A stretch of DNA of 64,000 nt from an uncultured bacterium. Its GTDB lineage: Bacteria > Bacteroidota > Rhodothermia > Balneolales > DATFMH01. A program made the translations under genes and the position numbers. Of this stretch, positions 2,724 through 64,000 are shown piece by piece. A model generated the notes under the pieces. The model was not told where the DNA came from and searched no databases. It saw only the letters and a program-made list of their open reading frames with translations. How positions within the stretch are numbered: position 1 is the stretch's first letter; each line of letters begins with the position of its first letter. The stretch covers positions 67,524 through 131,523 of the forward strand of contig CAWBCD010000009.1 in assembly GCA_963787205.1 (NCBI GenBank), in the 5' to 3' direction.

Positions 2724-3494
2724 TCAGTTAGTTAAAGCACTGAGCCGCACGGGCAGTCCGGCATCTCTCATTTCGGCTTTTAAAAAGCCAATCTCAATCT
2801 CTTTGTAATGGAAGATACTGGCCGCAAGCACGGCGTCGGCATGTCCTTTCTCAATGGCCTCGATACAGTGGCCTATGGTACCGGCGCCGCCGCTGGCTAT
2901 CACAGGGATCGTTACCAGTTCGTTGATACGCTGCAATAGTTCGATGTCGAAACCCGCCTTAGTTCCGTCACGGTCCATGCTGGTCAACAGAATCTCGCCG
3001 GCACCCCTGTCTTCGACTTCAGCAGCCCACTTCAAAGCATCCAGACCGGTGTCTTCACTGCCGCCTTTCACATATACGTTCCAGCTTCCATTGTGGCGGC
3101 GGGCATCAATGGCCGCAACAATGCACTGCGACCCGTAGTGGTCGGATGCACGTGTAATAAAATCCGGTTCCCGAACGATACTGCTGTTCAGCGAAATCTT
3201 ATCCGCGCCGGCATTGAGCAAGGCATCGATTTCCTCTTCGGTTCGAATCCCTCCTCCCACAGTAAACGGAATATTTATTTCCCGGGCGATTCGTGCAACA
3301 AGCGGTACGAGGGTCTTGCGTTTTTCCTTTGTGGCGGTAATGTCGAGGAATACCAGTTCGTCGGCCCCTTCATCGGAGTAACGTCGAGCCAGTTCCACCG
3401 GATCGCCGGCATCCCGTAGTCCTTCAAAGTTAACGCCTTTAACAGTGCGGCCGTCTTTGATATCGAGGCATGGTATGATTCGTTTTGTCAGCAT
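2724..3494 (-). CDS. hisF: Imidazole glycerol phosphate synthase, cyclase subunit
   Basis: '[23 protein letters not shown]...' and the TIM-barrel HisF motifs run throughout. I prefer the start at the internal Met (3494) because it matches the canonical HisF N-terminus. Confidence 0.95.
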
Positions 3495-3592
3495 AGGGTA
3501 AAGATACCCTAGCAAACCGGTCAGGAGCAAGTGATACCGGAAAAATCACTGTTCCAACTAACCATGTTCCATCAATGTGATAGTTGCTAATC

Positions 3593-8128: not shown

Positions 8129-9874
8129 GTGGGCATGGAAAAATCCGCACCCACATATGTTAACAAAGACACCACTGATGCGGAAGTCATCAGTAATGGT
8201 CAACAGAACCTGAACGGGCATAAGCCGAACCGCAAGCAGCCTGAGTTTCATCCACTGGCTCCTTATAAAGGGGTCCCACGTCGTATCCTGTTGCTTTATC
8301 GCCATGTTACGGGGTTGCTTGCCGGAGGATTGATCGCCTTTGTCAAGGCGATGCCCCCGGAAAAGAGGCGCCGTTTGCACACCCCTTTCAAGCGATTGTT
8401 TGCACTACTTATACGACCTTTTGTTAACAAGGAACTTCGCAATCTGCCGTTTCCCGATCAATTACGTCGCCGGCTTGAGATGCTTGGGCCGACCTACATA
8501 AAGCTTGGACAGATTCTCTCCATCAGGGAGGATATCCTGCCGGTAATCATAACGGATGAACTGAAAAATTTGCTAGACAGGTTGCCCGTCGTACCTTTTC
8601 CGGCTATTCGAAATATTGTTGAGGATGAAATGGGGCAGCCGCTGGAGGTATTATTCGAATCCGTGGAGGAAGAACCCCTGGCTTCGGCATCTATTGCACA
8701 GACTCACCGGGCACGAACAAAGGAGGGAGATGAAGTCGTATTAAAAGTCGTCAAACCGGGTATTCGTTCTTCCATACTCTCAGATCTGAAACTTCTGAGA
8801 ATGTTAGGATCATTACTGGAGTGGTTAATTCCACGATATCAACCCAAGGTGATCATTGGCGAGTTTTGCACCTATACCGAAAAAGAGGTCGATCTGACTT
8901 ATGAGGCTGATAATGCCGAATTGTTCGCTGCCAATTTCAAGGATCAGCTAAATGTGGTTTTTCCTAAAATTTATCGTGAGCTGAGTACACGTAATGTGCT
9001 CTGTATGGAGTTCCTCGATGGGTTTAAACCCGGTTCTGAGCAAACCAAAGATTTGGATGAGTTCGAGCGCCAATTGTTGATTGATTACGGTGTGGGAGCA
9101 ATTATCAAAATGCTTTACGAGGATGGATTCTTTCATGCCGATCTGCATCCGGCAAATCTGTTGATCATGAAAGGTTCGAGGGTTGGATTCATTGATTTGG
9201 GTATGGTTGGTCGCTTCAGCGAGAAAACACGCAGATATCTGCTGTTTTACTTCAACACATTGGTAAACGGGGATGTGGAAGGCTCCACAAAGTATTTGCT
9301 ATCAATTGCCAAAATGGGGAAAGGGTGTGATCCTGCAGCATTCAGGCGTGCTGTCGGTGATTTGTTCCGAAGATTTCAGATTTATTCGGCATATGGCCAA
9401 TTCAGCTTGGGTAAACTAATCCTGGAATCTCTCCGTGTTGGTGGACAGTTCAGTATTTTCTTCCCGGTGGAAATGACACTCATGGTCAAAGCTCTTGTGA
9501 CATTTGAAGGAGTCGGTCTGATGCTTGATCCAAACCTCGATATTCCGTCTATATCCCGCAAGCATATAGGCAGGATTTACCGCGATCAGTACGATCCCCG
9601 TCGACTGGCAAGAGAATTGATACGCAGCGGTCCCGAATTGGTAGATTTAATCATGAGACTACCTGATTTGTTGTCGGATGGCAGCCGGTATCTCGAAAAT
9701 GCCATGACCGAACGGCAGCCGTCAGACCCGATGGCTGGACTTCGGAACAGTATTCTGGCAGGATCATGTATCGTTAGTGGGGTGTTTGCTTACTTGCAGC
9801 ATGCTCCCTTCTATACCTGGCTTACCCTCTTTTTGATCAGCCTCCTTTTCATTGTGTTTGGTAAAAAAAGCTGA
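8129..9874 (+). CDS. ABC1/UbiB/AarF-family atypical protein kinase with C-terminal TM helices
   Basis: It has 'LGPTYIKLGQILSIREDILP', 'ASIAQTHRA', 'VLKVVKPG' and 'FFHADLHPANLL' motifs. The exact start (8129 GTG or 8135 ATG) is uncertain. Confidence 0.85.
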   Translation: MGMEKSAPTYVNKDTTDAEVISNGQQNLNGHKPNRKQPEFHPLAPYKGVPRRILLLYRHVTGLLAGGLIAFVKAMPPEKRRRLHTPFKRLFALLIRPFVNKELRNLPFPDQLRRRLEMLGPTYIKLGQILSIREDILPVIITDELKNLLDRLPVVPFPAIRNIVEDEMGQPLEVLFESVEEEPLASASIAQTHRARTKEGDEVVLKVVKPGIRSSILSDLKLLRMLGSLLEWLIPRYQPKVIIGEFCTYTEKEVDLTYEADNAELFAANFKDQLNVVFPKIYRELSTRNVLCMEFLDGFKPGSEQTKDLDEFERQLLIDYGVGAIIKMLYEDGFFHADLHPANLLIMKGSRVGFIDLGMVGRFSEKTRRYLLFYFNTLVNGDVEGSTKYLLSIAKMGKGCDPAAFRRAVGDLFRRFQIYSAYGQFSLGKLILESLRVGGQFSIFFPVEMTLMVKALVTFEGVGLMLDPNLDIPSISRKHIGRIYRDQYDPRRLARELIRSGPELVDLIMRLPDLLSDGSRYLENAMTERQPSDPMAGLRNSILAGSCIVSGVFAYLQHAPFYTWLTLFLISLLFIVFGKKS

Positions 9875-9885
9875 TTGGATTCCAT

Positions 9886-11151
9886 ATGCAGGTTCGAAAA
9901 AAAAACACATACCAAAGCCTGATACAATCCGATCATAAAGAAACGGATGAATTTGGTGAAAATGGAGTTCCACTGCACCATTCGGTTACGACGGAAATAG
10001 ACAATGTGCCACTCATTCGGCCGGATGAAGACCCAATAGATTTTGGGTATCTCGACAGCCTGGCGCGGGAGGTGGTAAAGCCGATCATTGATAACTATTT
10101 CCGGGCGGAGCTTATCGGTGCGGAAAAAATACCCGATCGTGGTCCCTATATTCTGGCAACCAATCACAGTGGAAATGCTTTCCCGCACGACGCCATTATC
10201 CTTGACGGATTGATTTGGATTTCCAAAGGATTACGAGAGGATATGAAACTTCGATCAGTCTATTCCTCCAAATTATCTGCTACCTGGTGGATGCGTCCAT
10301 ACGGGATAGATGATTGGTGGCGGCGTTGTGGCGGTATAGATATGAAATTCAGGAACTATGATTATCTAATGCAGCACGGTGGCCGAGTGATTTACTATCC
10401 GGAGGGTATACCTGGTATCGGAAAAGGTTTTAACCGCAGATACCAGCTTCAGCATTTTTACTCGAGTTTTGTTGTGATGGCAACAAAACATCATGCTCCT
10501 GTTTATCCGGTGTATTCCATTAATTCGGAATGGGTTAATCCGACCAGTATCACTTTCAAATGGCTGGATTATCTTTCCGATCGATTCCTGAATATTCCCT
10601 TTTTGCCGATGCCTGCTGCCATTATTGCTCTGTTTTTTCCATTTTTCTTTTACCTGGCCTTTCCGGCAAATATGAAATTTATTGTTGGAGATCCAATCGA
10701 TGTCAGGAGCAGACTGACAGAGCTGGGTACCGATCCCGATCATCCGGATAAAGATGTCATTCAACAGCTGGCCGACCGCATTCGCCACGAAATGCAGGAA
10801 CAACTTGACCAAAATCTGGAGATATATGGCAAGAAACCTTATGACTACCCTGGTCTCCGGGCATCTTTTCAAAAGCTCGGATGGCGTACCTTCCGCTACA
10901 CACCTTTTGGATGGCCCTTTCTGTTTATAAAACATGCCAGAGATCAACATCGTGGTCCGGCTGGAAACCGGCTTGTTAAGTGGTTGCGTGACCTGGATAT
11001 TTGGGCCTACTTCATCCCGCTTGGATGGATCATTATTTCTCTGTGCCGACGATTACGCAAGCCGCCTTATGGGTATCGTGGCCTCAGTAAAAGAGAGCGA
11101 ATTAAAAGAGAAGGCAAATATCTCTGGATGCTTGATCAGCAACAGTTTTGA
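9886..11151 (+). CDS. Lysophospholipid/glycerolipid acyltransferase-family protein (PlsC-like), putative
   Basis: 'ILATNHSGNAFPHDA' and 'YPEGIPGIGKGF' blocks resemble LPLAT motifs I and III. It starts 11 nt after the kinase stop. The canonical HX4D is not exact. Confidence 0.5.
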   Translation: MQVRKKNTYQSLIQSDHKETDEFGENGVPLHHSVTTEIDNVPLIRPDEDPIDFGYLDSLAREVVKPIIDNYFRAELIGAEKIPDRGPYILATNHSGNAFPHDAIILDGLIWISKGLREDMKLRSVYSSKLSATWWMRPYGIDDWWRRCGGIDMKFRNYDYLMQHGGRVIYYPEGIPGIGKGFNRRYQLQHFYSSFVVMATKHHAPVYPVYSINSEWVNPTSITFKWLDYLSDRFLNIPFLPMPAAIIALFFPFFFYLAFPANMKFIVGDPIDVRSRLTELGTDPDHPDKDVIQQLADRIRHEMQEQLDQNLEIYGKKPYDYPGLRASFQKLGWRTFRYTPFGWPFLFIKHARDQHRGPAGNRLVKWLRDLDIWAYFIPLGWIIISLCRRLRKPPYGYRGLSKRERIKREGKYLWMLDQQQF

Positions 11152-11154
11152 TAA

Positions 11155-11529
11155 TTATTGACTGTCGGCAGGGGTTAATTTAATTATGATGGATTGTGAA
11201 TCGGGACCAGCTTTTATCGTTTTGTCATATTCCCGATAACCATCTGCCGTTACCTTAACCATATAGGTCCCTTTATTAAGATTATCCAATTCGAAGGTCC
11301 CGCTTGAATTGGTCTGAACAGATATATCCTGATTTTGAATCGCAACCGTGGCATTGGTTACCGGTTTATTGGTGGAAAAATCGACTACAGTTCCTGTTAT
11401 TGTGCATGCGGAATCAGAGCTGATTACCCGGTATCCAGATGGTGCCTCTGCATAAACAGACACAATACTCATACTACCCATCAAAAATAATAAGAAAATA
11501 GAAAACAATGAGATGGATAAACGTTTCAT
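11155..11529 (-). CDS. Small secreted carboxypeptidase-regulatory-like (CarboxypepD_reg) domain protein
   Basis: A signal peptide 'MKRLSISLFSIFLLFLMGS...' is followed by 'ITGTVVDFSTNKPVTNATVAI...TNSSGTFELDNLNKGTYMVKVTADGY'. Confidence 0.65.
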   Translation of the reverse strand: MKRLSISLFSIFLLFLMGSMSIVSVYAEAPSGYRVISSDSACTITGTVVDFSTNKPVTNATVAIQNQDISVQTNSSGTFELDNLNKGTYMVKVTADGYREYDKTIKAGPDSQSIIIKLTPADSQ

Positions 11530-27605: not shown

Positions 27606-28847
27606 TTAAAACGACCACCGCAGCCTCGCATAAAGCAGGTTCGGTGTGGGGTAGATTTGCTCAATGGCCTTGTTGCGAATAATCTGTGCCAGCAGAAGAA
27701 AATCAATATCCTCGGTTACCGAATAGGTGATTTGCGGAATAATGATAGTCAGCCGGTTGGAGAAACCTTCAATTCCGGATAATCCTACATTAAGAAGAGG
27801 TGTCGCCGGAAACGTTACCTGGGCAAAGCCGGCTGTACGGGTGATGAACAGGTTGTTGGCCTGCAACGTCTCACCAAATAAAGCTTGCGGATTTAGTCTG
27901 GACGGGGCATTTCCGTTATAGAGGAACTCGCCGCTGATATAGAGACCGCTGCTAAAGGCATAGTCGCCCGATGTAGACAATAGCAGGTAGAAATTTTTTG
28001 CAGGATGGGAATATAGCGGGTGATAGATTGAAAACTCTCCCTTAAACCCTGCCTGGCCGATGGAACCGGCCCAGCCACCACCCACAACGGCCTGATCGTG
28101 ATAGTAGCCTCCCAGAAACTGCAGATCATATAATCCTTTATGCGTGCGAATCAGGATTGCTCCAACCGATTGCTTCATATTGTGCCGATCCGGTTTGAAG
28201 GCAAATTCGTACCCGGAGGCAAACCCACTGAAATACTGCAGACGGATGGCATCGGAACCCGGCTTCTCCTCGTAATCGAAGTCCAGATAGGAATAGGCGT
28301 TGAACAGGTCGTTGGGATTCCAAACATATGTTTTCCCCCAGTTGATGCGCTGCCGTCCCACGTCGAGCTCCCATTTTCCGGAATACCAGGTGGCATATAA
28401 ACGGTCGATGGAGGTATTCAGGATGGTCTGTTTGGTATCGATCCAGTTCCAGCTCAGATCCACGAGTCCCTGGTCCTGGGAGATTATTGAACCATACCCG
28501 GGTGTATGCCGAACCGTGTATCCATTAAACAACCGCGTTCTCTCGGCTGCATTGATCTGAAAAGACATATTTGGCTTCCATTGAAAATTAACCCGGTTGT
28601 GAAGCAGGTTGTCATAATGAAGAGTCTGGAAGGAGTTATCAACCTGGAGCATCCCCAATTCTTTGACGTAGCCATTAGCCGTCAGATGGGGAATACGAAA
28701 CTGGCCGTAAGCCAGAAAGGGAACCAACAAAAGCAGGAAAGCTATAACGAAACCCGCCGTGATTTTTCGTGCCTGTGTGGCGATTCTCAAAAGGTAATCT
28801 CTCTTACGTTTAGTTTTATTTGAATAATAGTATAGTCTGAGATTCAT
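27606..28847 (-). CDS. Putative outer-membrane beta-barrel protein (last gene of the ABC operon)
   Basis: It has an N-terminal anchor/signal 'AGFVIAFLLLLVPFLAYGQ', an alternating beta-strand-like sequence rich in Y/G/N, and a C-terminal '...YARLRWSF' aromatic terminus typical of OMPs. Confidence 0.55.
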   Translation of the reverse strand: MNLRLYYYSNKTKRKRDYLLRIATQARKITAGFVIAFLLLLVPFLAYGQFRIPHLTANGYVKELGMLQVDNSFQTLHYDNLLHNRVNFQWKPNMSFQINAAERTRLFNGYTVRHTPGYGSIISQDQGLVDLSWNWIDTKQTILNTSIDRLYATWYSGKWELDVGRQRINWGKTYVWNPNDLFNAYSYLDFDYEEKPGSDAIRLQYFSGFASGYEFAFKPDRHNMKQSVGAILIRTHKGLYDLQFLGGYYHDQAVVGGGWAGSIGQAGFKGEFSIYHPLYSHPAKNFYLLLSTSGDYAFSSGLYISGEFLYNGNAPSRLNPQALFGETLQANNLFITRTAGFAQVTFPATPLLNVGLSGIEGFSNRLTIIIPQITYSVTEDIDFLLLAQIIRNKAIEQIYPTPNLLYARLRWSF

Positions 28848-28922
28848 TGTATTAATTTTATTGTCACAGAAACACGGAGGTAACACGGAGCAAAGTTCTA
28901 TCTATCTCTTGATTTGTGGGCA

Positions 28923-29636
28923 CTATTCACCTATTTCTTTCTTCATAACATCCTGCATCACATCGCTTGCAATATGTCCGTCAACCAAGGTAATGACACG
29001 CAAAGCACGGTCGATCACGCGCTGGTCGTGTGTGGCAAAAATAAAGGTCATGTTTTCTTTGCGGTTCATTTCAGCCATGAGATCCATAAGCTGACCGGTA
29101 GATACCGAATCGAGGTTGGCCGTTGGTTCGTCGGCCAGGATATACCGGGGTTTGGATGCCAGGGCTCGGGCAACGGCAACTCGTTGCTGTTGGCCCCCGG
29201 AAAGCTCTGAGGGCCGATTGTCCATCCGGTCACCGAGCCCTACTGTGGTCAGAAGTTCTTCACTTCGTTGGCGACATTCCTTTTCTGACAGGCCTTGTAA
29301 CCGCATGATAAACTCAACATTTTCGCGTGCCGTAAACACAGGGATCAGGTTATATGATTGGAAGACGAACCCGATGTTGTGCAACCGGAAATCGATGAGT
29401 TTGCTGTCACTCAGGTTGGCCAGGTCGCTGCCGCTGACATGCACGCTGCCCTCATCCGGGCGGTCGAGTCCCCCAAGCATGTTTAACAGTGTCGACTTAC
29501 CCGATCCGGATGGTCCGATGATAGCTGCAAAATCTCCCTGGTTGATACTCATCGTTACATTATTCAGGGCGCGCACAGGGACCTTTGTCTCTTGGTATGT
29601 ACGGGTTAAGTGTTCGGTTTCAATAACTTTTTCCAT
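28923..29636 (-). CDS. ABC transporter ATP-binding protein (MacB/LolD-like)
   Basis: It has Walker A 'GPSGSGKST', the signature '[15 protein letters not shown]' and Walker B 'ILADEPT'. Confidence 0.93.
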
Positions 29637-29647
29637 GAGAAATAATA

Positions 29648-30862
29648 TTACCAGGTTCTTATTGCTTGAATAGGTCTTAGCTTGAGAGCCTTTCGGGCGG
29701 GATAGAATGAAGCCAGCAGGGCGGCGATGATCATCATAACGGCGACGACCGGGTATAGATGGGGATCCATTTCAGGACGTACGACCGAGCTGAATCCATA
29801 CTGTTGTCCATAAGCCAAAAATGCCAGGTCGATCCCGGTGTGATAAGTCAGCCGGATAGTTGCCCATGCTATTCCGAGACCGATGGGTACGCCTGTAAAA
29901 CTGAGCATCATCGTTTCGATGACAATCATACCAAACACGCGAAGTTTACTCATCCCGACAGCCATGAGCATCCCAAGCTCCCGGGTACGTTCCAGGATAG
30001 CCATGAGCATGGTATTTAGTATGGCCAGAATCAGGGCAAAGATGATAATGCCCATAATGATTGAAATCTCGAGGTTCATCTGGTCGTTTATAAGCTGAAA
30101 TTCAGGAGCAACGGTTTCCCATGACTGTATTTCGAGCTTGGGATGTTCTTTCTGCAACCGGGCGGCAACAGCGGATGCAGCCTGGGAGTCATCAAGCCGC
30201 AGGAAAATTTCCTGGATAGCGCCCGGCGCCCCGATCAGACGCTGTAAATCCTGGGCACGCACATAAAGCTGAGTTTCATCCCTGGACTTGTCATCGCTGC
30301 GAAACAGACCGGAAATACGAAAAGCGCCGGCTGCGATCTCATTGTGAACGTCCTGAAAAGTCAGCACGATTTTAGATCCGAGATCAACTTTCAAACGTTT
30401 GGCAAGAGCCTCACCGATGACCACACTATTTTTCTTGTCATCTCCAAAATAACTACCCTGTGTGACGTAATTGTGGATATCGAATACCTGCGGTTCCCGC
30501 TTAGGATCGATTCCACTGATCGTAACTCCATATGAGTTTGTCGCGCTCGAAGCCAGTCCCATCGCAGTAGTGTGAGCGGCGACACCAACTACTTGCGGGT
30601 TCTTCTCAATCGACGAGATCACTTGCTGCGGGTCCGGGACGGTATCGGAAACGAGTTTCTCGTTAAGGTAACCGGGCATATGAATCTGAACATGCCCCAC
30701 ATAATTGTTGAGCTGGTTACGCGTACGCTCACGGATCATGCCATTGTAGAATGCCATGACGAAGAGTCCGGCCCACACGCCCAGGATCACAGCCAGCAAA
30801 ATGACACCGCTGCGAACCGGGTTCCTCCAGATATTTTTCCAACAAAGCTTAATCAGATACAT
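29648..30862 (-). CDS. ABC transporter permease, FtsX/MacB/LolCE-type
   Basis: It has the '[18 protein letters not shown]' N-terminus, a large periplasmic loop, and C-terminal FtsX TM helices. Confidence 0.88.
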
Positions 30863-30922
30863 GGAATGATGTGGTTCAAGGTTATAGAAAATAAGTTCCT
30901 GTGTTTGACTCTAAATCTTTCA

Positions 30923-32161
30923 TTACGGTCGTAATGCCTGCCCCGGATCAAGCCGGTGAGTGTACCAGACCGGGTAGAACGAGAAGATCATCGCCAGGAT
31001 CAGGACTGTCAGGGCCTGATTGTAGAAGATGGATGGGGCCAGTGAGAATGGCAGAATCGGTTCAACGCCGAATTCCAGCATCATTTTGGCCATGTCTCCG
31101 GTGAGTGGTATCGGATGCAAATAAAAATATCCGAGGATTGGGAAGGAAACGGCCAGCCCAACAAGCGTACCGATCATCGCAATCATTACACCTTCAGTAA
31201 GCAATAATCCGCCCAGGCGCAGGCGCGACATGCCGACCGAAAGCATGATGCCCAGTTCTTTGCGTCGCTCTGCTGTCATCATTAGGATCGTGCCTAAGAT
31301 GCCAAATCCAATGATCAGGTACAGGATGAACAAAAAAATTAGCCCACCTCTGTCGTCAGCTTGTATCATTTGGTCCATATCCGGCATTAACTTTTGCCAG
31401 GTCATGACCTCGTATTCCGGTGCGGCTTTTCCATCAGAAGACGACAATTTTTTTCGCAGATCCGAGGCCACCTGAGGACCTTCCTGAGGATGTTCGGTGA
31501 GAATAGCAAGGGCGGTTACGTGGTTGGGCATCGCAAAGAAGAACTGGGACTCATTGATCGGCATGTAGACAAGTGCCCGGTTCATCGTCGGATCAGGCAT
31601 ATGTACAATGCCTGCGACGGGGTATTTACCGGCGGCACTCTGACCATGATATCCCTGCCCGATAAGAACCAACGTATCTCCCGGTGCGAGTTCAAGTTGT
31701 TTCGCCAGTTCATCCCCTATAATGACCGACCTGGCTGTTTCACTGCCCCAGTATTTCCCCTTGATCAGGTAATGTTCCGGATTTCCCAATAATTTTTCTT
31801 TTTGGGGATCAATACCCAGGATATATGCGGCACGGGTTATTTTTTGTCCCGCAGCCAGTGCGTATCCCGAAACTCTCGGTACCCATGTTGTCACGCGCTT
31901 CTCGGAAGCAAGCGCCGACTTCAGCGAATCGGTAACCACAAAGCTGTTATCCAGGGTCTGATCGTCCCAGTATCCATGCTTATGGATCTGCAGGTATCCG
32001 GTGATGTGACCGGCTGTGTTCTCGATCATCATCTCGTACGAACCAAGCTGCATGGATCGGGTCAGAGCTGATAATACAACCGCCAGCAGCACCGAAAACG
32101 CCGTGATAAGCGTTCGCCGCTTATTCCTCCAAATATTTCGCCAGGCTAATTTTAAATACAT
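30923..32161 (-). CDS. ABC transporter permease, FtsX/MacB/LolCE-type (TTG start)
   Basis: 'MYLKLAWRNIWRNKRRT' is homologous to the paralog's N-terminus, which supports the TTG at 32161-32159 as the start. Confidence 0.85.
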   Translation of the reverse strand: MYLKLAWRNIWRNKRRTLITAFSVLLAVVLSALTRSMQLGSYEMMIENTAGHITGYLQIHKHGYWDDQTLDNSFVVTDSLKSALASEKRVTTWVPRVSGYALAAGQKITRAAYILGIDPQKEKLLGNPEHYLIKGKYWGSETARSVIIGDELAKQLELAPGDTLVLIGQGYHGQSAAGKYPVAGIVHMPDPTMNRALVYMPINESQFFFAMPNHVTALAILTEHPQEGPQVASDLRKKLSSSDGKAAPEYEVMTWQKLMPDMDQMIQADDRGGLIFLFILYLIIGFGILGTILMMTAERRKELGIMLSVGMSRLRLGGLLLTEGVMIAMIGTLVGLAVSFPILGYFYLHPIPLTGDMAKMMLEFGVEPILPFSLAPSIFYNQALTVLILAMIFSFYPVWYTHRLDPGQALRP

Positions 32162-57195: not shown

Positions 57196-58992
57196 ATGCA
57201 GCACATTCGCAATTTTTGTATAATCGCTCACATCGACCACGGGAAGTCCACCCTGGCCGACCGTCTCCTCGAACGCACGGGTACCATAACCGAGCGTGAG
57301 ATGCAGAACCAGGTCCTTGACGACATGGACCTGGAGCGGGAGCGTGGAATTACGATTAAAAGTCACGCTATCCGTATGGCCTACAAGGCATCGGATAAAA
57401 AGACGTATGTATTCAATCTGATTGATACCCCGGGTCACGTCGATTTCTCTTATGAAGTATCACGGGCATTGAAAGCCTGTGAAGGTGCCCTCCTTGTCGT
57501 CGATGCTTCCCAGGGAGTTGAGGCCCAGACCATCTCCAACCTCTATCAGGCTATCGACCAGGATCTGGAGATTATCCCTGTGTTAAACAAGGTGGATCTG
57601 CCTGGAGCCGAGGTTGATGAAGTGTCCCAGCAGATTATTGATCTCATCGGATGTAAACGTGAGGAGATTCTGCAGGTATCCGCAAAAACCGGAGTCGGTG
57701 TAGAGGATCTCCTTGAAGCCATTGTAGAACGTATCCCACCTCCGAAGGGTAGCGCTGAAGCGCCGCTTCGTGCTCTTATATTCGACTCCGTGTTTGATGC
57801 CTACCGGGGTTCGGTTGTCTATGTTCGCATCTTCGACGGCACCTTGAAGAAAGGGGATCCGATCCGGTTTATGGCTACCGGCAAGGAATATGAAGCAGAG
57901 GAGATCGGCTATCTCCACATGAAGAAATTTCCAACAGATGAGATAACGGCAGGAGAAGTTGGCTATATCATCGGCAGTGTGAAATCAATCCAGGATACGC
58001 GAGTCGGGGATACAGTGACTACGGTCAGTCATGGTGCATCAAAGCCCATTCCCGGGTTCAAGGTCGTTAAGCCGATGGTCTTCTCGGGAATCTATCCGAC
58101 CAATGCCGATGATTTCGAAAACCTGCGATCTGCTCTTGAAAAGCTTCAGCTAAACGATGCCGCACTACAGTTTCAACCAGAAACATCGGCGGCACTTGGA
58201 TTTGGTTTCCGTGCCGGATTCCTCGGTATGCTGCACATGGAAATTGTGCAGGAACGCCTCGACCGCGAATTTGATATGGATATCATTACAACTGTTCCTA
58301 ATGTGCAGTTCGATGTATTGCTGACAAACGGTGAAAAGGAAGAGGTGGATAATCCGAGTGAGATGCCTGACCGTGGTGTTATTGAAGAGATATATGAACC
58401 GTATATCCGGGCTCAGATTATCACTCCGGCCGATTACATCGGACCTGTGATGAAGCTTTGCCAGGAGCGCCGCGGCGTTTATGTGAATACTCACTATCTC
58501 GATACCAAGCGTGTGGATATCACGTATGAGCTTCCTCTCGCAGAGATCGTTTTCGATTTTTATGACAAGCTTAAAAGCAATACCCGCGGGTATGCATCGC
58601 TCGATTACGAATTCATTGAACGCCGGGAAGGCGATCTTGTGAAACTGGATATCATGCTAAACGGCGATCCGGTCGATGCGTTGTCGACCATCGTGCATCG
58701 TGACAAGGCGTATGAGTGGGGACGTAAGTTGTGCGGTAAACTTAAGGAACTGATTCCGCGCCAGATGTTTGAGGTGGCTATTCAGGCAGCAATTGGAAAT
58801 AAAGTCATCGCACGTGATACCATTCGGGCCCTGCGTAAAGACGTTCTTGCTAAATGTTACGGCGGGGATATTACCCGAAAACGTAAACTTCTCGAAAAAC
58901 AAAAAGAGGGTAAGAAACGTATGAAGCAGGTGGGCAGTGTGGAAATTCCGCAAGAAGCCTTCCTCGCAGTACTATCCATGAGTAATGATTGA
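57196..58992 (+). CDS. lepA: Translation elongation factor 4
   Basis: It has '[22 protein letters not shown]', 'DTPGHVDF', 'NKVDLP' and the C-terminal LepA-specific domain. Confidence 0.97.
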
Positions 58993-59005
58993 TCCCGTGA
59001 TACGA

Positions 59006-59614
59006 ATGATCCGAAAAACCACCCTGTTTGTCCTTTTCCTGGCCCTTGCTGAAGCAGGTATCGTTCATGCCCAGCAATACAACATGTTTAAGGCGCCGAC
59101 CATACGCAAGGTCAATCACGCCGACCGGGCTAAATTCCATAAACGATTCAAGGATATAAAGTGGACCGGGCAGGGATTATACCAGAAAGCTACGATTGAT
59201 CATGTGCCGACCATTGAATTGAGAGCGCGGCTCCAAACCCTTTTTGGAAACCCGACGCAAACGCTGCCGGATATGGTCGGTAAAAAGAATTTTCGTCCCG
59301 GTATGTTTGTGGAGTTTGAGTACTGGCTTGTGGTGAACGACTCCATTCCAATGATGCTACTGGATGTGGACGGACCTTTTGAGAATGGTCTAGTCTACGT
59401 CGGTGCAAGCCGTTACATTGACCTGATGCCCGAAGTAAAGCGGACACTTTCAAGGGAATTGATGAATGTGAAGAAACTGGGCGATTTTAAGGATTATTTT
59501 TACTCGCCCGAAAGGGAAAAATGGTTCCTGGTCGAATACCAGAATGGGAAGTTTTCTCATAATCAGATATCCCAGCCCAAAAGGCTCCATTTTCCTAAAG
59601 AAGATATGAAGTAA
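59006..59614 (+). CDS. Hypothetical secreted protein between lepA and lepB
   Basis: It has a signal peptide 'MIRKTTLFVLFLALAEAGIVHAQ'. I recognised no family. An alternative ATG at 58985 overlaps the lepA stop. Confidence 0.5.
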   Translation: MIRKTTLFVLFLALAEAGIVHAQQYNMFKAPTIRKVNHADRAKFHKRFKDIKWTGQGLYQKATIDHVPTIELRARLQTLFGNPTQTLPDMVGKKNFRPGMFVEFEYWLVVNDSIPMMLLDVDGPFENGLVYVGASRYIDLMPEVKRTLSRELMNVKKLGDFKDYFYSPEREKWFLVEYQNGKFSHNQISQPKRLHFPKEDMK

Positions 59615-59638
59615 TAACCAGTATTAACTGCGTAAATC

Positions 59639-60739
59639 TTGGCAAACAAATCCAGTAAAGAACAGAACAAACCCCGCGGGAAAGAGCGGTTAAATCAAAA
59701 GCATCACCACCTGAACAAGAAGGCCAAATCGTGGGCCCGCGAGTGGTTGGATGCAATTATTTTTGCAGCTATTGCTGCGCTGATCATTCGTGCCTTCTTT
59801 TTTGAAGCTTACCGCATCCCGACGCCATCTATGGAGAAGTCGTTGCTGGTCGGTGACTTTCTGCTGGTATCCAAAGTGAATTATGGTCCGCGTACTCCAA
59901 TGTCAGTCGGTATTCCATTCACGAGTGTTCACATTCCTGATTTAACGATTCCATGGATTCGTCTTCCGGGATTTGAGAATGTCGAGCGATATGATGTGGT
60001 CGTCTTCAATTATCCAATCGATCATGATGTGATATCGGAAAAGACCAATTACATCAAGCGCTGCATTGGATTGCCGGGTGATACGTTGTCAATCAAAGAC
60101 AAAGTGGTCTACATCGATGGTAAGCCAACCAAGATATTTCCAACCATGGAAGAGACTTATGTGGTTACGGTCAAGGAAAGGTTGAGGCTGAGCCCGGCTC
60201 GTGTCGAACAGGCCGGGGGCAAGATTTTTCAGATGGTGGATCAGGGCAAGTATATCGTCAACATGACGGAAGCGACGGCGGATAAGATGAGTAAATGGCC
60301 CGAGATACAGAGTGTGAAACCGAACATCTACCCAAAAGATTACGATGAATTCCAGAATTCACGGTTTACTTTTTCTCGTGGGATTGATGGCAACAGGGAT
60401 CAGTTCCCCGCCGTTGTCGTGCCCTATAAAGGGGAAAAAGTGCATCTAACGGATAAGGACTGGCACCTGTACGAAAACATCGTCGAACGCTATGAACACA
60501 ACAAGGTGTCCAAGCTGGGTAATGATTTTACGATCAACGGGGTGCACACCAATGAGTATACCATCAAGCAAAATTACTATTTCATGATGGGAGACAACCG
60601 GGACAACAGCGAAGACAGCCGTTACTGGGGATTTGTGCCGCATGATCACATCGTAGGTAAAGCCTTCGTTGTGTATTTCTCATGGGATAAGGACCGGATG
60701 CTGCCGCGTTTCGACCGCATCTTCCACTTAATACATTAA
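59639..60739 (+). CDS. lepB: Signal peptidase I (TTG start)
   Basis: It has 'IPTPSMEKSLLVGDFLLVSK' (catalytic Ser), 'YIKRCIGLPGD' (catalytic Lys) and 'GDNRDNSEDSRYWGFVP'. Confidence 0.92.
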   Translation: MANKSSKEQNKPRGKERLNQKHHHLNKKAKSWAREWLDAIIFAAIAALIIRAFFFEAYRIPTPSMEKSLLVGDFLLVSKVNYGPRTPMSVGIPFTSVHIPDLTIPWIRLPGFENVERYDVVVFNYPIDHDVISEKTNYIKRCIGLPGDTLSIKDKVVYIDGKPTKIFPTMEETYVVTVKERLRLSPARVEQAGGKIFQMVDQGKYIVNMTEATADKMSKWPEIQSVKPNIYPKDYDEFQNSRFTFSRGIDGNRDQFPAVVVPYKGEKVHLTDKDWHLYENIVERYEHNKVSKLGNDFTINGVHTNEYTIKQNYYFMMGDNRDNSEDSRYWGFVPHDHIVGKAFVVYFSWDKDRMLPRFDRIFHLIH

Positions 60740-60897
60740 AACGACTGAATTTGTAATACATGCCCATTGTTTAAGATGCTGGTTCTGGCGTCCTCGCCTG
60801 GCAATAAGCGTTCATGACGTTCCGATCCCCATGCACTCGGGACCAGAAACCCTTAGCCTTTTCCTGATGCCCGTATTCCCCTATTTTCCTCGGTCTC

Positions 60898-61998
60898 TTA
60901 ACTGATCGTCTTGCCGTGCTCCCCTTTCTCACGGTCGGCAAGCTGCCCGCAGCCGGCGTCGATGTCATCTCCCCGGCTCCGGCGCACCGTGGCACGTACT
61001 CCCTGGTCGGTTAGTGCCCTCATGAACTGATCCAATCGATCCTCTTTGGCTCGCTTCATCGATACACCATTCACCTGGTTATACATGATGATGTTGACCT
61101 TGCTGGGGATCCAACGGGCGATTTTCGCCAGGTTTTGGGCATCTTCGGGACCATCATTGAAATGATCGAACAACAGGTATTCATAGGTTATCGGCTGATT
61201 GGTAGCAGCGAAGTAATGTTTGAGTGCTTCTTCCAGTGCCTTCAAATTCAGTGATTTGTTGATGGGCATGATCTGAGTCCGTTTCTCATCTGTGGGAGCA
61301 TGCAAGGAGACCGCAAGATTGAACGGCTGTTTCTCATCTCCAAGTTGCCGGATTTGCTTTGCCAGACCAACCGTGGAGACGGTGATGCGACGCTGTGAAA
61401 GGCCGAGGCCCAGCGGATCGTTTATGATGGCTGCCGATTCAACGACCTCGTTGTAGTTGTGCAGGGGTTCTCCCATGCCCATGTAGACGATGTTCGTGAT
61501 TTTTTTACCGAAGCGCTGTCCGCTGAACTCGTTTATGTAGGTGACCTGATCGACGATTTCACCCGCCGCCAGGTTTCGAAAGTATCCCATCTTTCCGGTG
61601 GCGCAGAAAGAGCATCCGAAGATACATCCGACCTGCGAAGACACACATACGGTAATGCGGTCTGCCGAGCCGTCATCATTCATTCCCGGGATAAGTACCG
61701 ACTCGATGTGCTTGCCGTCATGCAGGGCAAACAGAAACTTCACTGTTTGATCGGAAGCCTCCTGCATGTGGGAAACTTTAATGGGATGGATGACGGCTAC
61801 TTGGTCAAGCTTCTCCCTCAGATCCAGCGACAGGTTCGTCATTTCAGTAAATGTCTCCGCCCGTTTCTGATAGAGCCACTGAAAGATTTGGTCTGCCCGG
61901 AACGATTTCAGACCGAGTGAGTCGCAAAACTCACGCAGTCCTTCCCGTGAGAGAGTTTTTAGATCGGTTTTGGTCGTTGTAGTAATGGGTTCGCTCAT
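60898..61998 (-). CDS. rlmN: 23S rRNA/tRNA (adenine-C2)-methyltransferase, radical SAM
   Basis: It has 'FRADQIFQWLY', 'CVSSQVGCIFGCSFCATG' and a C-terminal 'GDDIDAGCGQL'. Confidence 0.94.
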   Translation of the reverse strand: MSEPITTTTKTDLKTLSREGLREFCDSLGLKSFRADQIFQWLYQKRAETFTEMTNLSLDLREKLDQVAVIHPIKVSHMQEASDQTVKFLFALHDGKHIESVLIPGMNDDGSADRITVCVSSQVGCIFGCSFCATGKMGYFRNLAAGEIVDQVTYINEFSGQRFGKKITNIVYMGMGEPLHNYNEVVESAAIINDPLGLGLSQRRITVSTVGLAKQIRQLGDEKQPFNLAVSLHAPTDEKRTQIMPINKSLNLKALEEALKHYFAATNQPITYEYLLFDHFNDGPEDAQNLAKIARWIPSKVNIIMYNQVNGVSMKRAKEDRLDQFMRALTDQGVRATVRRSRGDDIDAGCGQLADREKGEHGKTIS

Positions 61999-62888
61999 AG
62001 ATCAAAGATACGTAAAATGACAGGGTAACACAGGGTATAGGGGAACAAGAAAGAAAAGAATCGTTAGGATCATCGGACATAAATTATTGTGGAGTTTCTC
62101 ACTCGCACTCTGAATCTGTCATTCTGATTTTCTCCGACCTGTCGGAGAAAGTAGAATCCCGTTAGAGTCTGAATCGATCGTTGCACCAGGATAACGAGAT
62201 CCTACGTTGTCCGCCACGGCGCACAACATCAGGATGACATCCATGTGCAGAGATTTGCTTGGGCTAATCCAGTGTAGTCCCACCCAACCCTAACAATATC
62301 GATGTAACCCTGAGCCCAAAACGGGATCCGACGCGATGTTGGTTCGAAAGTCGTACCAATATGAGGATGACATTAACAGTTACTCATTGCTTATCAGTCC
62401 CTTAACAAGCTCATCAGTCAACTCGTCTGCAGAGGTACGCCGAAGTCTTAAAAAATCGATACAAAACCTAGCTCCATGCCCCTATGTAGGATGTGAAAAA
62501 GTACAAAAACAATGGATAAATCTTCTTGTTGCTGGCGAGTGAAGACCAAATACAGAAAAAAAGTTAACCTGACATTGTAAGTTCTTATGCAAACAAAATC
62601 CTTGCGGATTTTAGGGTGTATAGAATCAACAACTTTAAACCTGCACCAAGCCATTCTTTTTCCTAACTCTCTGGTTTTTTAAAACCGGTTTTAAATAAAC
62701 GGCCGTTTTCTGCTCTATCAAGCAGGTAGATAACTCCTACGGCAAGAGGTGAGAAAATAAATTCATGATACCTGATGGGAATAAATCGAAAAAGTAATAA
62801 ATATATAGATGCTAAAAAAGACTATAAGAACGATTCCATTATAGCTTTTACTGTGTTTTAACCGGTCAAAATCAGGCGTTATAGATGT

Positions 62889-63395
62889 TTAAAAAGCCAG
62901 CAGCAATAACGTACTAAGATTAATCAAGGCATGAATAGAGGCTGTTATCCCAAAAGCTTTTAAAAAAGAATCCTTGTTATTGACATAAAAACTCCAGGCT
63001 AAGATTAAACCTGCAGGTAAAACTAATGATGCTTTAAAAAGGCCATATTCAGGCCAGTGAGCTAAGGCAAATAGCAGGCCATCAACTACAATAATGAGAG
63101 GTGTATACGAAGTAATCTTGCTTAATAAAGTAAGAAATAACCACTGAAATATAATGGTTTCTATAATTGGACCTAAAATACAATCATATAAAAATTTCTT
63201 TATGAAGCTCGTATAAGCTGGAAACAGATGAGACTGAGTGATATTGATGTGTCCATGATGGTAAACGAGGGTACCCATTATAAGTAAACCGGCCATTAAA
63301 AACGTCAATATCTTAGAAGTAAAAAATAATTCTATTACAAACCTTACCGGTGAATAGGACTTCGTTTTATTGAGATAAATACTGATAAATTTCAT
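62889..63395 (-). CDS. CPBP-family intramembrane protease (CAAX/Abi; bacteriocin-immunity-type)
   Basis: It is polytopic, with 'GPIIETIIFQWLFL' (degenerate EExxxR position) and 'LLFALAHWPEY' (the FxxxH motif). I prefer the ATG at 63395 over the TTG at 63422. Confidence 0.6.
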   Translation of the reverse strand: MKFISIYLNKTKSYSPVRFVIELFFTSKILTFLMAGLLIMGTLVYHHGHINITQSHLFPAYTSFIKKFLYDCILGPIIETIIFQWLFLTLLSKITSYTPLIIVVDGLLFALAHWPEYGLFKASLVLPAGLILAWSFYVNNKDSFLKAFGITASIHALINLSTLLLLAF

Positions 63396-63556
63396 TTTTA
63401 ACGTGTTATAAAAACCTTGCAAAATCTTAAAAAAGAGCTTGCAATTGCCAGCCAGAAAAACAATCTTTTTCTAAATTTTTTTTATCAAACTCGTCTTATA
63501 TAATGTAAAACTTTGTACACAGATCCATTTTATAAGTTAACATTTATAAAGTATTA

Positions 63557-63597
63557 AATAAGAAACATTGCCCATATTATGAACAACATTTCTTATT
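63557..63597 (-). terminator. Hairpin downstream of the peptide gene
   Basis: AATAAGAAACATTG-(13 nt)-CAACATTTCTTATT. The outer 9 bp are perfect and an AT-rich tail follows. Confidence 0.45.
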
Positions 63598-63637
63598 TAA
63601 AGCAAACTTTATTATCTGTCAAACAAAGCGTAAAAGA

Positions 63638-63784
63638 TCACAAAAGATCATAGAGGACCTTAATTAACAGCGAATTATCAAGTGCCTCTCTAAAAGCGGC
63701 ACCGTATCCTTCTCCCGATTCATAGGCAGATTGTACGCTACCCCCATTCGTTTCGATAAGTTCTGAATTTGATAAAGTTTCCAT
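63638..63784 (-). CDS. Double-glycine-leader peptide A (48 aa; not in ORF track)
   Basis: My own translation gives METLSNSELIETNGG|SVQSAYESGEGYGAAFREALDNSLLIKVLYDLL*. The leader fits LSxxELxxIxGG exactly. Confidence 0.6.
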   Translation of the reverse strand: METLSNSELIETNGGSVQSAYESGEGYGAAFREALDNSLLIKVLYDLL

Positions 63785-63877
63785 ATAAGCAATGGTTAAA
63801 AGTTAAGTTTTAATATAGATTTTTTTGAAATTTGCTTTCCTCGAAAGCAAGGCATAAATACATAGAAGACCGCCTTG

Positions 63878-64000
63878 TTAGGAATCCTTTCCCAAAAAGA
63901 AGCCTTTTACAAAGCCTACCAAAAATGCTCCAATTCTTGGATCAAACATGATGGGACTTACAAGACCACCATCTATTTTTTGTAGTGATAGCCTATCCAT
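63878..64000 (-). CDS. Double-glycine-leader peptide B (40 aa or longer; ATG coincides with the window edge)
   Basis: My own translation gives MDRLSLQKIDGG|LVSPIMFDPRIGAFLVGFVKGFFLGKDS*. It has a hydrophobic Gly-rich core containing GxxxG. The true start may lie beyond nt 64000. Confidence 0.5.
   Translation of the reverse strand: MDRLSLQKIDGGLVSPIMFDPRIGAFLVGFVKGFFLGKDS

Follow-up and report, generated by a model that had tools for sequence, protein, structure and literature searches.

A Candidate Two-Peptide Bacteriocin Operon with a CPBP/Abi Gene in a Low-GC Islet of an Uncultured Balneolales Genome

Introduction

The plnE-plnF-plnI operon of Lactiplantibacillus plantarum consists of two adjacent genes for double-glycine-leader peptides followed on the same strand by a gene encoding a CPBP/Abi protein (PMC4467070). 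This last protein, PlnI, is the immunity protein of the operon (PMC4467070). A similarly ordered set of genes lies at one end of a 64,000-nucleotide stretch of DNA from an uncultured Balneolales bacterium, the whole of which is hereafter called the window. The phylum is Balneolota, within the Fibrobacteres–Chlorobi–Bacteroidetes (FCB) group. The last 1.4 kb of the window represent most of an islet of low GC content, about 1.8 kb long, that encodes two double-glycine-leader peptides, here called pepB and pepA, and a CPBP protein.

Double-glycine leaders are 15–30 residues long (PMC2850506). According to passages in PMC2850506 and PMC7018657, they are the recognition signal of C39 peptidase domains and are cleaved during export. 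Class IIb peptides pair helix to helix through GxxxG motifs, and every class IIb bacteriocin that has been characterised contains GxxxG (PMC2850506). AxxxA and SxxxS are counted as equivalent motifs. The genes of their exporters can occupy a separate operon, located nearby in the examples given (PMC2850506). CPBP/Abi proteins confer immunity to bacteriocins (Kjos 2010, as cited in passages of PMC9298176 and PMC4467070).

We propose, with moderate confidence, that the genes of the islet make up a class-IIb-like operon for a two-peptide bacteriocin, including an Abi/CPBP gene for immunity. An initial annotation of the window had described a bacteriocin-like locus made of two double-glycine-leader peptides and a CPBP gene; as the gene order is that of plnE-plnF-plnI, this reading of the locus type holds. 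From the position of the genes, we infer that they form a single operon and that the role of the CPBP protein is immunity. pepB and pepA would be made from one transcript, and a hairpin would make read-through to the CPBP gene less frequent. Export would rely on a peptidase-containing ABC transporter (PCAT) encoded elsewhere in the genome, which would cut off the leaders behind Gly-Gly in the process. Once mature, the two helical peptides would act jointly on target-cell membranes through their GxxxG motifs, and the CPBP protein would protect the producer.

Results

Gene Content of the Islet

The features of the islet are given below with their positions in the window; numbers preceded by L designate the sequences to which it was compared.

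62620..64000, no strand: low-GC islet, about 1.8 kb in relatives, extending about 0.4 kb past the window edge
63878..64000, minus strand: pepB, the 3' 40 codons and stop codon of a 51-amino-acid double-glycine-leader prepeptide
63832..63850, minus strand: small hairpin TTGCTTTC-GAG-GAAAGCAA between pepB and pepA, of uncertain role
63638..63784, minus strand: pepA, a 48-amino-acid prepeptide with the 15-amino-acid leader METLSNSELIETNGG
63554..63600, minus strand: long RNA hairpin resembling a terminator or attenuator, separating the peptide genes from the CPBP gene
62889..63395, minus strand: minimal CPBP/Abi (Rce1-like) intramembrane protease of 168 amino acids, putative immunity protein
62650..62880, minus strand: degraded remnant of a small open reading frame (ORF) following the CPBP gene, 87 amino acids in L001 and 83 in L005

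pepB, pepA, the strong hairpin and the CPBP gene follow each other in this order on one strand within 1.1 kb. Both peptide genes had been reported in the initial annotation as minus-strand mini-ORFs, and reading of the sequence together with the ORF listing gave the same coordinates and translations. The same annotation had described this edge as AT rich without computing it: the GC content is 0.31–0.34 between 62.5 and 64.0 kb versus 0.45–0.52 in the adjacent genes. Taken one by one, the features of the islet have a GC content of 0.25–0.41 versus 0.46–0.52 for rlmN, lepB, and lepA. The islet as a whole is at 31–34% GC in a genome background of about 48%.

Full-length pepB was read at L001 2543–2698 and L005 92–247. 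In relatives, whose peptides are 94–100% identical, it encodes 51 amino acids, the leader MENLHKLGLSEMDRLSLQKIDGG being followed by LVSPIMFDPRIGAFLVGFVKGFFLGKGS. Eleven codons therefore lie beyond the window edge, and the ATG at 64000 corresponds to an internal methionine, in line with the earlier suspicion that the leader might be longer than the window shows. The predicted mature pepB, LVSPIMFDPRIGAFLVGFVKGFFLGKDS, has 28 residues, a net charge of +1 and the motif GFVKGFFLG. The predicted mature pepA, SVQSAYESGEGYGAAFREALDNSLLIKVLYDLL, has 33 residues, a net charge of −3 and an invariant GxxxG (GEGYG). The GxxxG spacing had been noticed as GEGYG in pepA and GFVKG in pepB; pepB contains GFFLG in addition, and the two glycines of pepA (G24 and G28) are invariant across its family. 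At least one GxxxG is present in each of the eight mature peptides examined.

In both prepeptides, Gly-Gly occupies positions −2 and −1 at the end of a leader whose length falls within the 15–30-residue range. The pepA leader (15 amino acids) ends in NGG and that of pepB (23 amino acids in the full-length relatives) in DGG. Havarstein et al. reportedly gave in 1994/1995 a leader consensus with hydrophobic residues at −4, −7, −12, and −15 and an acidic residue near −8. The pepB leader has I, L, M, and L at the four hydrophobic positions and serine at −8. The pepA leader has L at −7 and −12, M at −15, E at −8, and threonine at −4; the earlier statement that it fits the consensus at every position is thus incorrect for −4, which is not Ile, Val, or Leu. 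This position is isoleucine in distant pepA homologues.

A loose regular expression for double-glycine leaders gave about 1.7 matches per 64 kb in shuffled sequences, and the motif alone is therefore weak evidence. Shuffling the last 1.5 kb 1000 times gave 0.005 matches on average, and never two or more. Applied to the real sequence, the expression retrieved pepA only, having missed pepB because its leader is cut by the window edge. For both peptide genes, the decisive evidence is comparative.

Conservation of the Cassette in Relatives

The contigs encoding relatives of pepA are syntenic with the window and share the peptides, the CPBP gene, rlmN, lepB, and lepA. Among these, L006 is a contig of the Balneolales metagenome-assembled genome (MAG) GCA_035266485.1, in which the islet extends from about 9400 to 11200. 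Three close lineages have the cassette next to rlmN: that of the window, that of L004 and L005, and that of L001–L003 and L006–L008. At least three further variant types were identified on metagenomic contigs of Balneolales-like organisms, in which two double-glycine peptides precede a CPBP protein 36–45% identical. These sister cassettes are all at 30–34% GC, and their flanks at 38–46%.

In every variant found, the peptide pair lies directly upstream of the CPBP gene. A winged helix-turn-helix (HTH) gene is located upstream wherever the upstream sequence is visible. In a distant cassette, the first peptide is, for example, MKNQAGLIALGESELYINGG followed after the Gly-Gly by SCPSCHQLTSSNGGFDDGYSLQQIVDFFHGFYDGFTES, and the second, a pepA homologue, is MEKLSNSEMLVINGG followed by GKGSPAYKAGKEVGEYLHDAVDFINAIQAFKWAAELL. 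The first leader of L098, MDNLNEMGLVELNSSDQKNITGG, resembles the pepB leader, MENLHKLGLSEMDRLSLQKIDGG, and the L098 core is unrelated. Conserved leaders, variable cores and a constant pairing before CPBP are as expected of a two-peptide bacteriocin cassette. In L089–L092, the CPBP gene is followed by a gene for a two-helix membrane protein of 74–76 amino acids.

Homologous peptide pairs are retained at 35–46% identity. Between L092 and L089, at a synonymous divergence (dS) of 0.5–0.8, the ratio of nonsynonymous to synonymous divergence (dN/dS) is 0.16 for the first peptide gene (P = 5e-5) and 0.12 for the second, pepA-homologous gene (P = 1e-6), indicating purifying selection on both. The initial annotation had made its reading depend on conservation of the mini-ORFs; both are conserved in relatives, and the module recurs. 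By these comparisons, two double-glycine-leader peptide genes and a CPBP gene form a real, conserved module. Searched at their rlmN loci, 28 other Balneolaceae gave no tblastn match to the cassette proteins and no match to the double-glycine-leader expression.

Judged by their sequences, the peptides match no known family. A search of 5.8 billion proteins yielded eight clusters for the pepA family, and one of 1.84 billion a single representative for pepB. The pepA alignment (A1) has 16 invariant columns, including L4, S5, E8, N13, G14, G15, G24, and G28. Weak tblastn matches to pepA in L026, L028, and L013 were rejected, as they lie inside larger unrelated genes.

Divergence is uneven along the locus. 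Between the window and L001, dS is 0.04–0.26 in the islet (62889–64000) and reaches 0.62 in rlmN and 0.78 in lepA (57196–61998); islet intergenic DNA is 90–93% identical versus 55% for the rlmN-lepB spacer. These differences suggest either that lineages exchanged the islet more recently or that its composition is strongly constrained. We rejected recent horizontal transfer as an interpretation of raw nucleotide identity: islet and flanks are similar in this respect, and only synonymous divergence differs.

The CPBP Protein

The assignment to the CPBP family made in the initial annotation is borne out by PF02517, which matches residues 74–169 of the 177-amino-acid ORF with 38.6 bits (gathering score 22.4). 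The alignment of homologues favors the ATG at 63395 (168 amino acids) over the TTG at 63422, the start of the longer ORF. In this alignment (A3), E79-T80...Q84, F109xxxH113, and H155xxxN159 are invariant. They include the four catalytic residues, Glu, His, His, and Asn (E79, H113, H155, and N159). Motif 2 (FxxxH) is F109-A-L-A-H113 and motif 3 (HxxxN/D) is H155-A-L-I-N159. Motif 1 is ETIIFQ (ETxxxQ) in place of EExxxR; the seven family members all share the first Glu and have Thr instead of the second Glu and Gln instead of Arg. An AlphaFold2 model computed from the seven-sequence alignment is all-helical, with six long helices and a short one. Foldseek gave no match at E < 1 in the PDB for this model, which is of low confidence (mean pLDDT 64).

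Search for an Exporter

The bacteriocin-type peptide/CPBP module of the initial annotation stands; the exporter that it considered probable beyond nucleotide 64000 does not. Its proposal to look there was followed in the syntenic contig L006, where neither a C39 ABC transporter nor HlyD is encoded in 10 kb. Past the peptides, these 10 kb contain genes for an S9 peptidase, AhpC, an aldo-keto reductase, superoxide dismutase (SOD), pirin, OsmC, a 273-amino-acid protein of unknown function, a Transgly_assoc protein, and a small membrane protein. As the window is also devoid of a PCAT, the closest available relatives do not bear the prediction out, and by this synteny any exporter gene lies 10 kb or more away, if there is one.

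The sole ABC ATPase of the window belongs to a MacB/FtsX-type system at 28923–32161, 31 kb away, within a minus-strand set of genes at 27606–32161 composed of one ATPase, two MacB_PCD/FtsX permeases and a 426-amino-acid protein without Pfam match. This system is of the MacB/Lol type and is not a PCAT. The ten largest ORFs of the window are housekeeping genes or have no family match.

One sister cassette is different. In L100 (contig Ga0209918_1022557), the HTH-peptide-peptide-CPBP genes are directly preceded by a segment (positions 1–642) encoding the C-terminal ATPase domain of a fused ABC exporter (HlyB/MsbA/PCAT class); this segment is at 44% GC versus 31% for the adjoining cassette. Its presence is a partial rescue of the exporter prediction.

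Hairpins

The hairpin that the initial annotation had seen after pepA is strong, with about 22 bp and −26.5 kcal/mol (63600–63554, z −5.5); a U-rich tail comes after it. A counterpart is found after the second peptide gene in the four relatives folded, L001, L005, L089, and L092 (z −5 to −7), with a sequence in L089 and L092 different from that in the window. The other hairpin noted there, at 63832–63850, exists and does not stand out from its 81-nt context (z −1.0); the substitutions that it has in L005 still leave U-G and G-U pairs in minus-strand RNA. In both hairpins the substitutions are of the G-U wobble type, with pairing only in minus-strand RNA, which gives indirect support for transcription of this strand.

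Surroundings of the Islet

No tRNA or tmRNA gene was found as an integration site at the islet border, and an Rfam scan had no credible match. The best RlmN match among Genome Taxonomy Database (GTDB) species representatives is 67% identical, so that no close genome exists there; the top matches are from Gracilimonas, Balneola, and other Balneolaceae. FCB-group promoters are expected to depart from the sigma-70 consensus. A sigma-70 promoter scan, with no match versus 5.7 expected, is for this reason uninformative.

Directly upstream of the islet, L006 1–9400 contains a run of genes for oxidative and general stress (AhpC, aldo-keto reductase, Fe/Mn SOD, pirin, OsmC, and GlsB/YeaQ-like Transgly_assoc). 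On the other side, between the islet and rlmN, a highly structured element of about 150 nt forms a three-way junction (62091–62241, minus strand; −54.9 kcal/mol for 130 nt, z −5.6), with one stem whose sequence differs in each lineage. Counterparts are located at L001 4037–4190 and L005 1972–2125. A diverged second copy lies in the rlmN-lepB spacer of L001 (5554–5720), and not at that site in the window. The element had no Rfam match at E ≤ 1, and a covariance model found no copy in 28 other Balneolaceae loci. As the model matches both strands, the element is palindromic. The lack of an Rfam match and the second, diverged intergenic copy in L001 make it look like a mobile repeat of the miniature inverted-repeat transposable element (MITE) or repetitive extragenic palindromic (REP) type rather than a leader. 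A segment of about 330 nt (window 62290–62620) is shared with L004/L005 and missing from the L001-type lineage. It has overlapping ORFs on both strands (68 amino acids each in the window, 91 in L005), which had no Pfam match.

State of the Copy in the Clade of the Window

Where intact, the winged-HTH-like protein has about 105 amino acids; its match to HTH_11 is below threshold (E = 6e-4). Intact genes are located at L092 109–420, L099 93–410, and L100 672–998, and a remnant at L001 2166–2477, just past the window edge. In L001-type relatives, the first 27 codons or so are missing and an insertion carries an in-frame stop; L004 and L005 have a frameshift in addition. The HTH regulator is thus a pseudogene in the clade of the window.

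In sister cassettes, the intact HTH proteins have at their C-terminal end a canonical double-glycine-leader motif, NLSKEEMRQTIGG or GFQKNLSKEEMRQTIGG, followed by a variable hydrophobic tail of 13–18 amino acids (FFIKRIPLYLLVQ, YYRKYFHCIYLFSDLKFI, and YAKHSGPLYVFMQ). An internal methionine of the HTH gene would yield a 20-amino-acid leader. From its sequence, the C-terminus may be a third, pheromone-like double-glycine peptide, fused to the regulator gene or nested in it.

In the ORF following the CPBP gene, the window has lost the start codon (ACG for ATG) and carries a 1-nt frameshift and a premature TAG. We considered this ORF as a homologue of the 74–76-amino-acid membrane protein of the distant cassettes and rejected the idea, the two having no detectable similarity.

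Selection was estimated on the three genes within the clade. The CPBP gene has dN/dS values of 0.07–0.26 (P below 1e-5). For pepB, values are 0.09–0.2, with P = 0.035–0.045 in two of the three pairwise comparisons. pepA is indistinguishable from neutrality (P = 0.11–0.54), and its C-terminus is altered within the clade by a 10-nt indel. All three lineages retain both peptide ORFs, their start codons, their Gly-Gly sites and the hairpins.

Discussion

Evidence Weighing against a Bacteriocin Operon

Several observations weigh against a class-IIb-like operon with its own immunity gene. No peptide scored above threshold with the curated bacteriocin and double-glycine-leader models of Pfam and NCBIfam, TIGR01847 among them, the search that the initial annotation had proposed: the best E values were 0.064 for PF10439, 0.21 for PF04369, and 0.78 for NF038034, the first (Bacteriocin_IIc) being obtained with pepB at 13.7 bits versus a threshold of 27.1. 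The mature peptides are mostly anionic (net charge −5 to +1), and typical membrane-active class II bacteriocins contrast with them in this respect. The pepA leader has a threonine at −4, and motif 1 of the CPBP protein departs from EExxxR. A dedicated ABC transporter with its accessory protein is expected near class IIb genes; no C39 ABC exporter or HlyD was found in the 64-kb window on one side or in the 10 kb beyond it on the other, in the syntenic MAG. The exporter next to the L100 cassette is at most a candidate PCAT, as its N-terminus, where a C39 domain would lie, is off the contig and the ATPase domain does not separate HlyB, MsbA, and PCAT. To these are added, within the clade of the window, the regulator pseudogene, the decay of the downstream ORF, the neutral-like pattern of pepA, and the indel at its C-terminus.

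Alternative Readings

The state of the copy is addressed by a possible, although on balance doubtful, alternative. The module would be that of a bacteriocin, the toxin would no longer be made here, the CPBP gene would be kept against the peptides of neighbors, and the peptide genes would drift. The contrast between purifying selection on CPBP and near neutrality of pepA is in favor of such a relic, as are the N-terminally truncated and interrupted regulator, the degraded downstream ORF, and the lack of an exporter nearby. So is L089, in which a second, tandem pair of CPBP and 74-amino-acid membrane-protein genes (2785–3555) has no double-glycine-peptide genes in front and resembles an orphan immunity locus. 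Conversely, peptide ORFs, start codons, and Gly-Gly sites are intact in all three lineages, pepB shows weak constraint in two of three comparisons, the hairpins are retained with wobble-preserving changes, and substitutions are too few to demonstrate relaxed selection. This alternative concerns the present activity and not the kind of module. Given the regulator pseudogene, the degraded downstream ORF, and the lack of an adjacent exporter, this genome's copy may function only in part; it could, for example, be retained chiefly for immunity.

An improbable alternative is that the double-glycine peptides are pheromones, with the HTH protein as regulator and a CPBP protein that processes them or modulates a sensor. 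Roles of CPBP proteins in peptide processing or sensor modulation have been proposed for SilX of S. anginosus and MroQ of S. aureus (PMC9298176), and such proteins can serve in signal-peptide maturation rather than immunity (PMC9298176). The HTH gene directly upstream in every cassette with visible upstream sequence and the invariant catalytic residues of the CPBP protein would agree with this. However, none of the cassettes encodes a histidine kinase, a response regulator or a peptide-binding regulator, and the HTH regulator is a pseudogene in the clade of the window, where peptides and CPBP persist. Long mature peptides (28–38 amino acids), always paired and with an invariant GxxxG, suit two-peptide toxins better than pheromones.

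We give little credence to a more elaborate scheme, a self-contained system free of PCAT, in which the HTH tail would be released as an autoinducer and the minimal CPBP protein, with its ETxxxQ motif, would mature all three double-glycine peptides instead of providing immunity. If true, the HTH protein would combine a regulator with the precursor of its own pheromone, or would represent a new kind of long "borrowed-domain" leader, comparable to the NHLP/Nif11 leaders.

It is likewise very unlikely that the CPBP protein itself removes the leaders or aids the release of the peptides, which would explain the missing exporter. CPBP genes are always coupled directly to the peptide genes and keep their catalytic residues, no PCAT is encoded near the locus in the clade of the window, and CPBP proteases are implicated elsewhere, in SagE/streptolysin S and SilX/SilCR (PMC9298176). 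However, double-glycine leaders are the recognition signal of C39 domains according to the passages cited above (PMC2850506; PMC7018657), known class IIb exporters can sit in a separate operon, nearby in the cited examples, one sister cassette (L100) adjoins an ABC exporter, and a protease alone does not move peptides across two membranes.

Finally, chance small ORFs in AT-rich noncoding DNA, an idea favored by the weakness of the Gly-Gly motif alone and by islet intergenic DNA as conserved among close relatives (90–93%) as pepA (90%), are effectively refuted by the comparative data, that is, homologous pairs at 35–46% identity with dN/dS of 0.12–0.16 and conserved leaders.

Significance

The small peptide families that the cassette defines are very scarce in public data and are accompanied by a compact CPBP partner of 168 amino acids. 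With two peptides and one putative immunity gene, the cassette offers a simple system that can be synthesised, with which the way CPBP/Abi proteins protect from two-peptide bacteriocins could be studied, and it could reveal whether acidic two-peptide toxins work in diderm bacteria. A module of double-glycine peptides and CPBP can persist without an adjacent exporter; mining rules that demand a neighboring PCAT would therefore miss such loci. No characterised peptide bacteriocin from Balneolota was found in a narrow text search of the literature, and few unmodified double-glycine-leader toxins were found in the literature for the wider FCB group beyond the bacteroidetocins.

Comparison with Known Systems

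The cassette can be compared with three described systems. The streptococcal blp/pnc and sil loci (PncO/PncP, SilX) have double-glycine peptides clustered with CPBP proteins, as here, and the role of the latter may be immunity or peptide processing. In SilX, Q replaces R in motif 1, as in the CPBP protein of the islet (PMC9298176). These loci hold a PCAT and two-component genes, whereas here the regulator, where intact, would be a small winged-HTH protein, and no kinase is present.

The bacteroidetocins are produced by diderms of the same FCB group and are likewise unmodified peptide toxins, with a short double-glycine leader of 15–16 amino acids like that of pepA (PMC6671954). Unlike the paired peptides described here, they are single peptides with four cysteines and are related to class IIa (PMC6671954). 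Their locus encodes a PCAT, a thiol oxidoreductase, and a protein with five transmembrane segments (PMC6671954). It has no immunity protein or CPBP, and the producers are sensitive to their own peptides (PMC6671954).

Plantaricin EF has no sequence similarity to this cassette. Its prepeptides are of similar size, with 56 and 59 amino acids versus 51 and 48 here, and PlnI has 257 versus 168 for the CPBP protein. In both cases, the mature peptides contain GxxxG and the operon itself has no exporter gene; the ABC transporter and accessory genes (plnGH) adjoin the pln operon, whereas none is found here within about 10 kb. The host of plantaricin EF is a Firmicute and that of the islet a diderm of the Balneolota, in which pepA is anionic. 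The closest system in architecture is plnE-plnF-plnI, and the closest by lineage are the bacteroidetocins.

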